From assembly GCA_963847185.1 (NCBI GenBank), contig CAWJYV010000010.1, positions 224,001 through 288,000 of the forward strand: a stretch of 64,000 bases of DNA, given 5' to 3'. The translations under genes and the position numbers were made by a program. Of this stretch, positions 15,555-20,156 are shown in pieces; position 1 is the first letter of the stretch; every line of letters begins with the position of its first letter. The DNA is from an uncultured Methanosarcinaceae archaeon (GTDB lineage: Archaea > Halobacteriota > Methanosarcinia > Methanosarcinales > Methanosarcinaceae). Under the pieces are notes generated by a model, which was given only the letters and a program-made list of their open reading frames with translations, had not been told where the DNA came from and did not search any database.

Positions 15555-15618
15555 TAAAGTACAGGGAAATAGGAAATAAAGTACAGGGAAATAAAGTACA
15601 GGGAAATAAAGTACAGGA
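15555..15618. repeat. 15-bp tandem repeat (TAAAGTACAGGGAAA), about 4 copies
   Basis: Directly visible in the intergenic region. Confidence 0.85.
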
Positions 15619-15683
15619 ACAGCGGGAAAAATAAAACCAGAAAATTCTCAAAAACATTTCTGGATTATACAGGATTAATTTCA

Positions 15684-16091
15684 ATGAAAATTATTATAGA
15701 GACTCCAAAATACAGTTTTTGGAAGTATTGCAGAACAGAAAAGGGCTATGAAAGATCTTTCTTTTCCCCTCTGCCTGCAATTTTCAATTACGGCTTCATA
15801 GAAGGGACAGAAAGCCCTGACGGAATGGAGGAAGATGTGGTCGTACTCGGACCTCGCCTGCCTAGAGGAAGTACGCTTGAAAGGGAAGATTTTGATGGAA
15901 TAGTAAAGTTCCTGGACGATTCTGTTCGGGACGATAAGAAAGTGGTGTATATCAGCGGGTTTTCTTCTCCTTTTTTGCTTGCTTATTATTTCAGAATTTA
16001 TGCTCTTTTTAAAATCTTCCTCTATGCATGTCGCAAAAGAAAAATCACAGCATGTAAGTTTGAAGGAATTGTGCTAAGAAAATCGCGCTAA
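15684..16091 (+). CDS. Short family I inorganic pyrophosphatase-like protein
   Basis: IIETPK...FNYGFIEGT..PDGMEEDVVVLG...DDK motifs; only 135 aa. Confidence 0.7.
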   Translation: MKIIIETPKYSFWKYCRTEKGYERSFFSPLPAIFNYGFIEGTESPDGMEEDVVVLGPRLPRGSTLEREDFDGIVKFLDDSVRDDKKVVYISGFSSPFLLAYYFRIYALFKIFLYACRKRKITACKFEGIVLRKSR

Positions 16092-16208
16092 CAGGTTTCT
16101 AAAAACGCTGAAAAATTATCAGATTCTCTAACCTTTTATTTCTTCTGATAAAACAAGTTAGAAAACTACTAATAATTTAAAGAAGCTTAAAAAAAAGGTG
16201 CTTTTAAC

Positions 16209-17351
16209 ATGCCTTTTCATGTAATGCTGATCCCGACCCTTGGCTGCCCTGCTAATTGCAGTTATTGCTGGAGTTCCGAAGAGAAATCCCCGATAATGAG
16301 TATGGAAACCATAAAAGAAGTGGTTGAATGGCTTAAAGGTTTCAGGGGAGATTCGGTTACTTTTACTTTTCATGGTGGGGAACCTCTTCTGGCAGGTGCG
16401 GATTTTTACAGGGAAGCATTACCTCTACTGGCTGAAAGCTTAAACTCCAGGAGAATAGCCTTTGCGATACAGACCAACCTCTGGAAACTTACTCCCGAAA
16501 TAGCCGAGATTTTTGCCGAATACAATATTCCTATAGGTTCCAGTCTGGACGGCCCGCAGGAACTCAATGACCTGCAGCGGGGAAAAGGTTACTATGAAAA
16601 AACCATGAGAGGACATGAAATTGCCAGGGCTCACGGGCTTGATGTGAGATTCATTACCACTTTTACTTCCTATTCTGTAAAGTTCAGGGAGGAGATTTTC
16701 AATTTTTATCTTGAAAAAGGCTTTACTCTTAAGTTGCACCCCTGCCTGCCTTCTATAAAAGGGGAAAACCCCGAAAAATGGACCCTTTCTCCGGAAGAAT
16801 ACGGAGAACTTTTAATTTATCTTCTGGATAAGTATCTGGAGAACATTGGCAGAATTGAAGTTATGAATATTGATCACCTCTGCAAATGCGTTTTCACAGG
16901 CAGGGGTACTGTCTGTACCTATGTTGACTGCATGGGAGACACATTTGCAGTCGGCCCTGATGGAAGCATATACCCTTGCTATCGCTTTGTGGGCATGCCA
17001 GAATACGTTATGGGAAATGTTTATGACCACCCTACCATGGCAGACCTTGCCCAGTCAGATGCCTGGAAGCTCATGCACAGGTTTAAAGAATATGTGGACA
17101 CAGCATGCGGCAAATGCGCCCATATCAAATACTGCAGAGGCGGCTGTCCTTACAATGCAATAGTTCCTACAAACGGTGAAATAAAAGGTGTAGATCCGCA
17201 CTGCATTGCTTATAAGATAATTTTTGATGAGATAAACAACAGGGTCAACGAGGAAATGTTTGGTTCCTCTGGTATGATGAATATGTTCCAGCCTCAGTCT
17301 ATGGAGCCTTCAAGATCGGGCATAATGTCTCTAATGCTTAAAAAGATCTAA
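16209..17351 (+). CDS. Radical SAM/SPASM enzyme, methanogen putative peptide-modifying family (TIGR04083-like)
   Basis: CPANCSYC radical SAM motif and FHGGEPLL; SPASM motifs GSIYPCYRF and CGKCAHIKYCRGGCPY...DPHC. Confidence 0.88.
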   Translation: MPFHVMLIPTLGCPANCSYCWSSEEKSPIMSMETIKEVVEWLKGFRGDSVTFTFHGGEPLLAGADFYREALPLLAESLNSRRIAFAIQTNLWKLTPEIAEIFAEYNIPIGSSLDGPQELNDLQRGKGYYEKTMRGHEIARAHGLDVRFITTFTSYSVKFREEIFNFYLEKGFTLKLHPCLPSIKGENPEKWTLSPEEYGELLIYLLDKYLENIGRIEVMNIDHLCKCVFTGRGTVCTYVDCMGDTFAVGPDGSIYPCYRFVGMPEYVMGNVYDHPTMADLAQSDAWKLMHRFKEYVDTACGKCAHIKYCRGGCPYNAIVPTNGEIKGVDPHCIAYKIIFDEINNRVNEEMFGSSGMMNMFQPQSMEPSRSGIMSLMLKKI

Positions 17352-17446
17352 AACAGGTTATGTAGCAAATATCTGAAAGCGGGTTAATACTGAAAATTCA
17401 TGAATTAATCAAGCTTTTAATTATCTGGTAATCATACTTTAGCCGT

Positions 17447-17546
17447 GGGTATGAGTTATTGATCAAGTCCGTAAAGCGAGTATATCTACTGCATATTGGG
17501 GAAATGTAGGGAGATTCCTGTGCTTTCAGTTTTCAATAACTCACCC
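17447..17546. mobile_element. MITE-like repeat family A, copy 1 (about 100 bp)
   Basis: Ends are GGGTATGAGTTATTGA ... TCAATAACTCACCC; homologous to 27362-27464 and 41627-41727. Confidence 0.7.
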
Positions 17547-17716
17547 TACTACCTCAAATTTCTTGTGCAATATATTGAGAATGCACTAAAAATGCCTTAT
17601 TTTGTATTTAATCGAAACCTCTTTATTCTTGAGTTGCATAAATAGGATAGTGGATTCCGGTTTGTTTGTAAATCAAATAAATAATTATCGGAGATCTTGT
17701 GATCTGGAAGGTTTGT

Positions 17717-17827
17717 ATGGACCATGATGACTTGATACAGCAAAACAGAATAATGAACAAAGTAATGATCTGTACTTTCGGTGTACTGCTTACTTTGTTG
17801 GCGCTAATCGGTTTGTATGGTGTCTGA
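17717..17827 (+). CDS. Small single-TM protein (36 aa), unannotated
   Basis: MDHDDLIQQNRIMNKVMICTFGVLLTLLALIGLYGV*; GGAAGGT Shine-Dalgarno-like sequence upstream; below the ORF track cutoff. Confidence 0.6.
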   Translation: MDHDDLIQQNRIMNKVMICTFGVLLTLLALIGLYGV

Positions 17828-18502
17828 ACTTTATCTTTTAAAGGTTAGAGTTCAGGAGAATGCGGCAATTTAATCGGAAGAATTGCAGGCTTCTCATAAC
17901 CCTGACTTTTCGTAAAGCGCAAATGAAATAAGAGTTTATTTTGGACAAGGAACCGGATTTTTCTTTATGGTTCCAGTTGTTACCTGAAGTTCCCTGGGAC
18001 CTCAGGAAGCCCGGAGTTTTCGGGTTTTCCGCAGGTCTTACAGGAAGGAACATTTCCAGCTTATTGGCCAGCCCGGCAGTGGACGTTGTGGAAAAAATGG
18101 CTGGCTAAAAGAGTGGAAAATAACAACTTCTTAAGTACAATCTCCAGTTTCTTGGCTGGCCCGGCAGAGGACGTTGTGGAAAAAATGGCTGGCTAAAGGA
18201 ACGGAACATAATAACTCATCAACTGCAATATTCAACTCATTAGCCAGCCCGGCAGAGGACGTTGTGGAAAAAAATGGCTGGTTAAAAGAGCGAATATAAT
18301 TTTCTACACTTTATACCAGGTTCTGAAAAAGGCTCCGGAAAGGAGCTTATAAAAGAGGGTTTTAAAATCCTGGAAAAAGGTGTTAAGGACAGGAAGAGAA
18401 CAGGGAGTGTGAACCCTAAAAGAGTAATCGTTGAGACGGCCCTGGGTGATGAGAACAGAGGAGATGAGATCTCCTTTTTTCAAGTTTCAGGGTCACTTTT
18501 TT
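17824..18502 (+). ncRNA. Candidate long structured RNA (or 3' UTR of the 36-aa ORF) containing a triple repeated hairpin
   Basis: A series of stems whose mismatches are G-U pairs on the + strand; three 88-nt units at 18064, 18152 and 18240; ends in a hairpin plus T-tracts at 18460-18502. Confidence 0.6.
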
Positions 18503-18562
18503 AAACCAATTTATTTAGGTTCAAGTTTGAGCTTAAAATCTGGTGGCAAAATTATTTTTTTT

Positions 18563-18683
18563 CAGAAAACCAATTTTATTCTCAAATCAGTAAATATTCA
18601 TAACTATTTTTGTGGTCAGAAACTATATTGATTATTCGGAATACGGGATTTAGAGAAGCGATTTTGAGTTTCGGGATCGACTC
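18563..18683. mobile_element. MITE-like repeat family B, degenerate copy
   Basis: Colinear similarity to 21896-22028; ends ATTTTGAGTTTCGGGATCGACTC. Confidence 0.5.
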
Positions 18684-18812
18684 TTAGAGTAAGATTATCT
18701 TACAATATAGGTAATACTATCTCATAATTCGCGTGAGATTATTTTACAATTCAAGTAAGATTATTTTATGATTTAGGTGAAGTATCTCACAATTGAGATT
18801 GGGTGAAATATT

Positions 18813-19442
18813 TTGAAACCTGGAGCAATGTTGGTCTGGAAGGAAACAAAAGGATACTGTAAATTGAGAAGGAGTAGTCTTTTATTTCTTTCTTTACTTG
18901 CAGGCCGGGTTGCAGCAAAAATTCTTGACCTCTGTGCTCTTCCTGAGATCATGGATTTACTATGGCAGATAATTAAATTCAATACCCGACACCTCACTCC
19001 AATAGAGGAACAGGAAGCTAGAAGCGTATTTGGAGAGAGTATCAATTATTCAAAAATACGTATCGATGAACATTCGCTCATTGCCTGGATAGGAGCAAAA
19101 ATAAACAAGTGTTCGAGTATGGGTGTTACCACTTTCCATACAATTAATTTTAATCAAAAAATCAGGACTGAAACCGGAAACCAAGATATGAAATGGCTTA
19201 TTCACGAGTTAACCCATATTGCTCAAATGGAGAGGTCAGGTTCGAAATACTTTGTTGAATCACTTTATGCACAGGCAACTGAAGGATATGCATACAAGCC
19301 TGGATCCAGACATCATTTGCGTGAGTATAACCGAGAGCAACAGGCATCCCTTATTGCAGATTATTATTTTACACTTATTTCAGGAAGCTCGACTGCAATT
19401 TATGATAGCTATATCGCAGAACTGAAAGCTGGAGAATTATGA
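18813..19442 (+). CDS. HExxH zinc metallopeptidase-like protein (DUF4157-like)
   Basis: LTPIE...VFGESINYSKIRI, WLIHELTHIAQ and NREQQA. Start codon uncertain. Confidence 0.7.
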   Translation: MKPGAMLVWKETKGYCKLRRSSLLFLSLLAGRVAAKILDLCALPEIMDLLWQIIKFNTRHLTPIEEQEARSVFGESINYSKIRIDEHSLIAWIGAKINKCSSMGVTTFHTINFNQKIRTETGNQDMKWLIHELTHIAQMERSGSKYFVESLYAQATEGYAYKPGSRHHLREYNREQQASLIADYYFTLISGSSTAIYDSYIAELKAGEL

Positions 19443-19532
19443 GATGTAGAGGATAAATATAAAATAAAGCCACAATTTACTGATAATCTCAAACAATTCA
19501 ATTCATTCATTTCATCCTTTTATTATTTTATT

Positions 19533-20156
19533 TTACCTTTTTATTATTTTCATTACCTCAGCAAGATCCTCAGCAATCATCTCTCGTTTTGATTTCTCGA
19601 TCAGGTAATTCTGCCCAGTCTGCACGTATGAAGGAAAAACTCGCTTGCCCTGATAATAAAATTCATTCTTCCTGATTTTGTATGTAGAGCCGGCTGGAAT
19701 AACGTTTTTGCCGCTCTGCCGCTTGCTGATATAGTTAAAAGCCTTTATCGCAACATCTCCCATTAACAGGTAAACCTCAAGATTCGGAAAGAGAGCAAGT
19801 TCTTTTTCCAGCATAAAAGAACAATTCTTGATTGTTACAGCCGAAACCCCGTATTGAATCTTTGCACATTTTACCGCAGTCGTCAGGTAGAATCCAAGGT
19901 CAAGAATTTCCTGCATGCTGCTCACTGAAACTCCTGCGTCATTGAAAGCCTGAAGAGTTGTTTTCAGGTAAAAAGATTCTTCAGCCCCATAGAAGTAATC
20001 TTTCCGATCCTCAGGCGGAGCTTCGGAAATCATGACTGTTTTGATCTTCTCAGGCTGTATGTCCACAGCAGGTACAAAATATCCTCTTTTGTTTATGTCG
20101 GAACAGGGAAAGTCCTTACATTCAATGTACTCAGAAGGTTTCATTTTGAGACTCAC
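19533..20156 (-). CDS. Uracil-DNA glycosylase superfamily protein
   Basis: MISEAPP, YLTTAVKC and LLMGDVA UDG-like motifs. Confidence 0.75.
   Translation of the reverse strand: MSLKMKPSEYIECKDFPCSDINKRGYFVPAVDIQPEKIKTVMISEAPPEDRKDYFYGAEESFYLKTTLQAFNDAGVSVSSMQEILDLGFYLTTAVKCAKIQYGVSAVTIKNCSFMLEKELALFPNLEVYLLMGDVAIKAFNYISKRQSGKNVIPAGSTYKIRKNEFYYQGKRVFPSYVQTGQNYLIEKSKREMIAEDLAEVMKIIKR

Follow-up and report, generated by a model that had tools for sequence, protein, structure and literature searches.

A conserved peptide-coding Methanosarcina RNA with a structured 3' domain predicted to pair with sRNA154

A structured region at positions 17824-18502 of the window (the whole 64,000-nt stretch of DNA from an uncultured Methanosarcinaceae archaeon that was analysed) is predicted to be the 3' part of one transcript of ~850 nt, running from 17650 to 18502. 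This structured RNA is a genuine, conserved Methanosarcina transcript, which has been partly catalogued. Three conserved unpaired motifs in its 3' domain are complementary to sRNA154, the master sRNA of nitrogen metabolism and the best-studied regulatory RNA of methanogens, which is needed for full nitrogen fixation, and the domain probably pairs with that RNA. The explanation that we prefer, with a probability of about 0.4, is a nitrogen-regulated dual-function transcript, the 3' domain of which is a decoy, or sponge, for sRNA154. The listing of the M. mazei orthologue, its translation, its detection by mass spectrometry (MS) and its induction under nitrogen limitation were known already. The three motifs, and the specific partner that they predict, are new here.

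The transcription unit and its orthologues

The conserved unit begins upstream of the structured region. Its order is BRE/TATA, a GGAW-N6-TTCC palindrome, a 67-nt leader, an ORF of 36-38 aa, the structured region and, last, a U-tract. In the orthologues the promoter, the ORF and the structured domain occur together. An inferred BRE and TATA box is located at 17613-17627 on the + strand, and TTTAT(T/C) is found 17-18 nt upstream of the operator in the orthologues. Counted from the start that corresponds to that of the M. mazei entry, the TATA-like box spans positions -28 to -23. The palindrome (17645-17658) is a predicted NrpR-type operator that overlaps the transcription start, which is placed at 17650 by homology. 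The consensus operator of NrpR is GGAA-N6-TTCC (PMC2723118), and a similar motif between the TATA box and the start, with both half-sites kept, is found in 34 of the 35 long-peptide units, the spacer being changed in 5 of those 34. The motif alone is common, having 397 matches in the genome, 96 of them outside long ORFs. Control of the transcript by NrpR is predicted from these sequence features.

A Shine-Dalgarno-like GGAAGG (17706-17711, + strand) precedes the peptide ORF (17717-17827, + strand; alignment A1), and a similar purine run stands before the start codon in the orthologues. The 36-aa product, the orthologue of the M. mazei sORF_305 peptide, has a Gln/Asn-rich N-terminus and one hydrophobic helix. 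It is present in 32 of the 59 genomes of the window's genus and belongs to no Pfam or NCBIfam family. A search of a 1.84-billion library with the peptide returned 9 clusters, every one from the sORF_305 family, and a search in the Atlas gave only unnamed or weak matches. The N-terminus (17717-17760 and the orthologues) is built of repeated MxQ(Q/H)NK units, with extra copies at locus L012. It is conceivable that the Gln/Asn-rich codons could tie translation of the peptide to the supply of glutamine. In many genomes a tandem paralogue lies downstream (L010:2253-2330 on the + strand, and L011, L012, L013, L014, L015, L016, L019 and L023). Its promoter and leader resemble those of the main unit, the peptide that it encodes is a 26-aa version, and its 3' region is different; its operator is degenerate in some cases. 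Locus L028 carries two full-length copies of the peptide.

The M. mazei orthologue is MM_3414/sORF_305, a 398-nt entry on the + strand with no function assigned, the peptide of which is identical to that of our locus L030 (PMC11456600, supplements). The peptide has one predicted membrane helix (TM 20-37), was called translated by Ribo-seq and was detected by bottom-up MS; MM_3414 appears only in the tables of that study and not by name in its main text (PMC11456600). Under nitrogen limitation the log2 fold change is 2.19 for ribosome footprints (padj 1.8e-4) and 1.35 for RNA (padj 0.029), with no significant change in translation efficiency (padj 0.70) (PMC11456600). The direction of these changes was checked against sRNA154 and spRNA36. 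The start of the entry corresponds to position 17650 of the window, and the entry runs through the ORF into the structure. It ends on a TAG inside the loop of hairpin H1, before the sequences complementary to sRNA154. This end is taken to be an ORF boundary, because all seven MM_33xx/34xx entries seen end on a stop codon. The source-data entries listed for that study contain no feature that matches fragments of the 3' half (PMC11456600).

RNA contigs from four libraries of four studies, the runs being chosen for containing the stretch, were mapped over 15600-19600. One contig of 522 nt covers 17667-18188 with 9 differences and a second covers 17675-18109, so that the ORF and the structured region are bridged. 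The pieces, which are strand-less and end-less and may come from more than one transcript, reach 18399; 18400-18502 is uncovered and no contig lies over 18414-18547, the uncovered flanks being given no weight as evidence. Because the contigs stop at 18399 and carry no strand, sites B and C, described below, lie beyond the transcription evidence. The sequence-only reading had offered two options for the region, a free-standing long ncRNA or a long structured 3' region on the transcript of the 36-aa ORF; the second is the one that the data support. Neither the operator nor the complementarity to sRNA154 figured in that reading.

A BLAST search over 151 genomes of the family gave 29 positive genomes, or 26 after three spurious ones had been dropped, and all 26 belong to the window's genus and one sister genus (Methanosarcina and relatives). 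Loci L033 and L034 were dropped as orthologues because their sequence reads as coding DNA, and L035 because it matches only 36 nt of promoter; weak model matches in G110 and G134 fall in coding DNA and were dropped as well. The synteny with the TIGR04083 gene that had been anticipated did not hold, this gene being upstream only in the window's lineage (L001, L056). Elsewhere a 4Fe-4S/aldehyde ferredoxin oxidoreductase operon, divergently oriented, is usually found upstream. The 3' flanks of the unit are not conserved among the orthologues, and several genomes keep the peptide and the 5' structured block without the 3' block.

Several other features were seen around the unit. In many orthologues a 45-aa ORF with a zinc-ribbon-like CxxC...CxxC pattern, which has weak family matches only, follows the unit on the same strand (L037:4857-4991, + strand, and equivalents). 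In the window, a 44-nt repeat in two copies (18684-18771) precedes a downstream 209-aa ORF (18813-19442, + strand), which has a weak match to the eCIS-core domain PF13699 (E 0.003, below the cut-off). The ends of the contig (G000:C10, ~1-60 kb and above 740 kb) are very GC-rich and contain Ala/Arg-rich frames unlike the rest of the genome; they are possibly foreign DNA in the assembly.

Fold of the structured region

The region 17824-18502 folds better than shuffled controls on both strands and most strongly on the + strand, with z -6.07 compared to -2.39 on the - strand (20 shuffles each), as the sequence-only reading had proposed. At one fixed setting its z is -5.4, which exceeds all of 39 ORF-free 520-nt control segments (39 of 747 such segments in the genome were scored with 8 shuffles, the better strand being taken; the best control had -4.6). 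The z value in the window is inflated by three 88-nt repeats. The repeat-free parts fold too, with z -3.74 for 17824-18044 and -2.43 for 18300-18502. The other 18 orthologues have + strand z values from -0.9 to -6.3, mostly -2 to -3. These usual values overlap the tail of the control segments, so that the case for a real RNA rests on conservation and not on z. Of all 19 sequences, the window's included, 7 score lower on the - strand, and z alone is thus insufficient to fix the strand. The non-Watson-Crick pairs do favour the + strand, because 134 G-U were counted compared to 44 A-C among 960 cells from 16 orthologues, in agreement with the G-U bias that had been noticed in the window.

No credible ORF had been expected in the region and none was found: only short ORFs of 31-71 aa overlap it, and many indels in the orthologue alignments are not multiples of three. 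The region is single-copy in the window's genome. No Rfam family reaches its gathering score in the window, the best match having an E-value of 0.78 and lying outside 17824-18502. Equivalent hairpins were found again in nine diverged orthologues, each folded singly.

The 5' structured block (17824-18044, + strand) consists of hairpins 17824-17855, 17856-17896, 17949-17974 and 17993-18044 in the minimum free energy (MFE) fold, recurs in diverged orthologues and is retained even where the 3' block has been lost. Of the six stems listed in the sequence-only reading, five are present in the MFE fold (17824-17855, 17949-17974, 17993-18044, 18330-18348 and 18438-18494). The sixth, 18356-18371, is absent, its bases pairing instead into a longer helix, P7 (18306-18381, + strand), which encloses hairpin H2 (18330-18348). 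The terminal helix P9 and the U-tract (18438-18502, + strand) form the predicted 3' end. The outer helix of P9 has 95% of cells paired among 16 orthologues, with C-G/U-A swaps. The claim of a U-rich terminator stands as far as the U-rich 3' end is concerned, which is conserved among the orthologues, the exact position of the end being a prediction.

A consensus of 61 pairs was derived for the 3' block from 16 aligned sequences. In this consensus 86% of cells are paired, compared to 33-53% when it is slid along the alignment, and 32 cells are changed on both sides, compared to 14.7 in shuffles. The pair-level covariation count is weaker, 16 of 500 shuffles being as high. The near-invariant runs are largely outside the helices and comprise the H1 loop, GAC-GGA, GUGUGAA and AGAGUAAUCGU.

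The triple array is real. It consists of three tandem 88-nt units with 64-81% identity (18045-18308, + strand), each a copy of hairpin H1 with the loop GAGGACGUUGUNG-AAAAA, and no near-invariant run in alignment A2 is longer than this loop. Most orthologues have one copy of H1 and the related H2 loop, whereas four genomes have two or three H1 copies. These four no longer have the H2 motif, which suggests that the two loops are interchangeable. The H2 loop is a short GGAAA in the window and GAAGAYGUUGNNG, a relative of the H1 loop, in most orthologues. The array is a lineage-specific amplification of a conserved loop and is not CRISPR-like. At locus L144 (G028:C1:1981547-1982786) a ~1.3-kb insertion, resembling an insertion sequence, interrupts the RNA at hairpin H2 and leaves the downstream sRNA154 sites intact.

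No partner RNA for the H1 and H2 loops was established among the candidates checked. An intergenic repeat of ~170 nt is present in seven copies in the genome (G000:C1:104399-104619 and six other places, L116-L122), three of which carry a stretch complementary to the loop motifs; it was rejected as a partner because it was not found in any of four other genomes. M. mazei sRNA023 and sRNA061 carry ACAACAUC, but the sRNA023 of the window's genome does not have it, and the sRNA061 orthologues mostly read ACCACAUC in its place. When 3873 start regions were scanned for duplexes with the H1 and H2 loops, the 22 best included no evident nitrogen gene, and the exact complement pattern is no commoner than a control in five genomes.

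Complementarity to sRNA154

The partner (C3:68576-68710) is a true sRNA154, scoring 133.9 bits with Rfam family RF02906, the cut-off of which is 88. Three near-invariant unpaired motifs, located within 46 nt, show exact complementarity to this RNA over 11, 7 and 11 nt. Site A, GGACAGGAAGA (18387-18397), is complementary to sRNA154 nt 86-96. Site B, GUGUGAA (18407-18413), is held in the loop of hairpin P8 (18402-18417) and is complementary to nt 33-39, and site C, GAGUAAUCGUU (18422-18432), to nt 53-63; all are on the + strand. Site B faces the unpaired CA-rich region of sRNA154; opposite sites A and C are the 3' arms of the two inner hairpins of that RNA. As computed, the open CA-rich region and both hairpins are covered by the complements.

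Alignment A2 was made before sRNA154 came into view, and sites A-C account for three of its four longest near-invariant unpaired motifs. The match was spotted after a few published sRNA sequences had been looked at and is therefore post hoc. In an energy-weighted scan of 8.08 Mb on both strands the site ranks first at all three penalties. The scan score itself is not extreme, because 56 of 193 shuffled sRNA154 sequences had an equally strong best match genome-wide, and an unweighted 7-mer score placed the site behind 22 loci and did not single it out. None of 5000 shuffled sRNA154 sequences held even two of the three complements, and all three complements together are present only in sRNA154 and the minus strand of the locus itself. 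That the top match should fall on the invariant motifs of the RNA is unlikely by chance. Neither a sense nor an antisense copy of sRNA154 would show the sites in this order, and a simple duplication therefore does not account for them. Pseudoknot-free cofolding gave energies from -0.3 to -19.7 kcal/mol, which beat all 30 shuffles in 4 of 16 pairs.

The seed of site B is common to the sRNA061 family. A tandem pair of sRNA061-like genes (G000:C8:355760-356763, L162), which occurs in 26 of the 59 genus genomes, has a near-invariant single-stranded CCACUUUCACACC. The seed UUUCACAC is present in this pair as it is in sRNA154, and loop B is a possible partner for it as well.

The predicted pairing is preserved across genomes. 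Among 18 genomes with both RNAs, 17 keep 8-12 bp at site A, 7-9 bp at site B and 10-13 bp at site C; related genomes in this count, as in the co-occurrence counts, are not independent. In the eighteenth, G067, the site and sRNA154 have both decayed. In G051, for which no nifD match was found, the syntenic place shows a clean deletion of ~425 nt that removes sRNA154, and each of the three sites has substitutions. Three genomes of the sister genus (G059, G041 and G028) shift site A and keep 10 bp. G173 has a compensatory A-U to U-A swap at the edge of site C, where the window's genome is mismatched; this is the only clear swap of its kind, because both partners are nearly invariant.

Within the genus, 14 of 15 genomes with an intact domain have an sRNA154 over the cut-off, the exception being 81% complete, compared to 21 of 44 genomes without an intact domain that have any sRNA154 match. 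The domain locus and sRNA154 lie within ~31 kb of each other in 10 of 18 genomes. The corresponding positions of sRNA154 stay largely pairable in 16 aligned genomes that have no domain, and in G156 the sites are lost and sRNA154 is intact. The domain does not neatly track nifD: G059 has the domain and sRNA154 and no nifD match, and many genomes carry nifD without the domain.

Function and relation to known systems

In the mechanism that we favour, the 5' part of the transcript would encode a small membrane peptide and the folded 3' scaffold would present three sequences to sRNA154. The GUGUGAA hairpin loop may first kiss the single-stranded CA-rich region of sRNA154, after which the two flanking segments would invade its internal hairpins, with pairs that are predicted to be better than those that sRNA154 makes with itself. 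With most of its functional surface occupied, sRNA154 could be inactivated or sent to decay. The outcome might be a threshold, or a faster shut-off of the nitrogen-starvation programme. We infer the direction of this effect from the layout of the sites: capture of the open loop and both hairpins by three sites on a dedicated scaffold, far from the start codon, points to a decoy. With more than 550 nt between them and the stop codon, the sites cannot act directly on the ribosome binding site of the peptide ORF.

A potential NrpR operator has been reported for sRNA154, which is expressed under nitrogen limitation and blocks translation of glnA2 (PMC3177094, 10.1101/2021.06.03.447018, PMC5867862, PMC11549558). 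By masking cleavage sites it is reported to stabilise the nifH, glnA1 and nrpA mRNAs (PMC5867862, PMC11549558). Under nitrogen limitation its rpkm values in M. mazei are 55,314 and 85,982; the 5' 398 nt of the orthologue reach 221 and 390 (PMC11456600). The excess of sRNA154, counted over these 5' 398 nt only, is ~220-250-fold under limitation and 7-11-fold under sufficiency. An excess of ~200-fold argues against simple titration. At such levels a stoichiometric sponge is impossible, except if the 3' part builds up on its own or conditions differ from these.

This excess fits a target of sRNA154, and a dedicated target is a plausible alternative on which we would not yet rely. Binding near the 3' end would stabilise or remodel the mRNA and raise the amount of peptide under nitrogen limitation; one way would be for sRNA154 to break the short helix between site C and the terminal U-tract, which pair with each other in the centroid folds of the window and of L011. 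All the pairing evidence for sites A-C applies equally to a target, the stabilising mode reported for nifH, glnA1 and nrpA provides a precedent (PMC5867862, PMC11549558), and both RNA and ribosome footprints of the M. mazei orthologue rise under limitation. However, the operator alone can account for that induction, and translation efficiency does not change significantly (padj 0.70). One seed would suffice for a target, so that three sites over both hairpins and the open loop are not needed, and the peptide persists in genomes that have no 3' block. It is unlikely, although less so than the two alternatives that follow, that the complementarity is incidental and that the GGA/A-rich loops of the repeated hairpins form a protein-binding or stabilising scaffold with no functional contact to sRNA154. 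The post hoc nature of the match and the modest cofold energies are compatible with this, and the H1 loop, the most conserved and amplified element, has no RNA partner in the searches run. On the other hand, such a scaffold would not be expected to rank first genome-wide, to carry three motifs that fall on one known sRNA of 135 nt, to decay jointly with it in G067 and G051, or to have nitrogen regulation and linkage in common with it.

A locus of the type I toxin-antitoxin kind, in which the mRNA of a hydrophobic peptide is silenced by folding and by a cis antisense RNA, is very improbable. The short hydrophobic peptide, the long structured mRNA and the tandem paralogues would suit it, and in the MFE fold of the window the ribosome binding site lies in a helix with the 3' U-tract. 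This 5'-3' pairing hides the ribosome binding site in only one of seven orthologues folded, so the folding test failed; moreover, the 3' flanks are not conserved, the source-data entries listed include no antisense match (PMC11456600), and the orthologous peptide is translated and detectable in growing cells. It is scarcely credible that the 3' block (from ~18045) is a separate ncRNA with a start of its own, unrelated to the peptide mRNA. The published MM_3414 entry does end inside the H1 loop, and several genomes have the peptide and 5' block while missing the 3' block, but the end of the entry looks like an ORF boundary (7 of 7 entries), the 522-nt contig runs across the junction from 17667 to 18188, and the alignments show no obvious internal TATA-like motif that is conserved. 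The 3' block may yet be set free by processing. The decoy is preferred to the target by a narrow margin only. A wider version of it can be put forward only tentatively: a peptide-coding, NrpR-controlled archaeal sponge of new build, which would dock on sRNA154 and unzip it at three sites, with a second module, H1/H2, that captures a further RNA or protein and a peptide whose fate is perhaps tied to glutamine supply.

Control of sRNA154 is described in the accessible literature only at the level of transcription, by NrpR. The conserved three-site RNA would be either a post-transcriptional off-switch for sRNA154 or its strongest predicted target. The titles and beginnings of abstracts returned by the literature searches mention no archaeal sponge and no such pairing of sRNA154, and the primary sRNA154 paper and the 2009 transcriptome paper may contain prior notice. 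The structured transcript is not named in the accessible part of a preprint on five spRNA/antisense pairs (10.1101/2025.10.28.685009), and that of PMC10714827 has nothing further on it. The sites complementary to sRNA154 fall in the region outside the published annotation. The pairing prediction is directly testable in M. mazei, for which sRNA154 deletion and inducible knockdown strains exist.

Dual-function RNAs of the SgrS, RNAIII and SR1 type have a small ORF and a base-pairing region on one transcript, as is predicted for the RNA described here. Its small ORF is conserved, and the M. mazei orthologue is translated according to Ribo-seq and MS. The predicted partner, however, is an sRNA and not an mRNA as for SgrS, RNAIII and SR1, and the activity of the RNA itself is a prediction. 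MM_3414/sORF_305 agrees with the window's RNA in its start motif, its peptide family and its 5' structured block, but there is one copy of H1 in M. mazei compared to three in the window (PMC11456600). Another structured intergenic RNA of Methanosarcina, sRNA162/sRNA171 of M. mazei, is 191 nt long, non-coding and different in sequence and locus (PMC3510493). Identity with sRNA162 had been suspected from an ArsR-like neighbour in two loci and was ruled out by sequence; the sRNA162 linker is not complementary to the H1 loop.

The nifH, nrpA, glnA1 and glnA2 mRNAs are also members of the nitrogen regulon that pair with sRNA154 (PMC5867862, PMC11549558), as is predicted here. In contrast to them, the window's RNA has three sites, which are in a long 3' non-coding domain far from the start codon. 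A decoy of this kind would work like RosA of Bacillus subtilis, an RNA that binds a central metabolic sRNA by base pairing and is controlled in turn by a metabolic repressor (PMC8216469). The proposed likeness is one of class, drawn from complementarity and conservation, and no sequence relation is expected. As in a sponge, the complementarity extends over the functional regions of the sRNA, and both the pairing and the co-presence of the two RNAs were found computationally to be conserved. Unlike the bacterial sponges RosA and QrrX, the RNA is archaeal, codes for a peptide, is 640-870 nt long and carries its three predicted sites on a folded scaffold.
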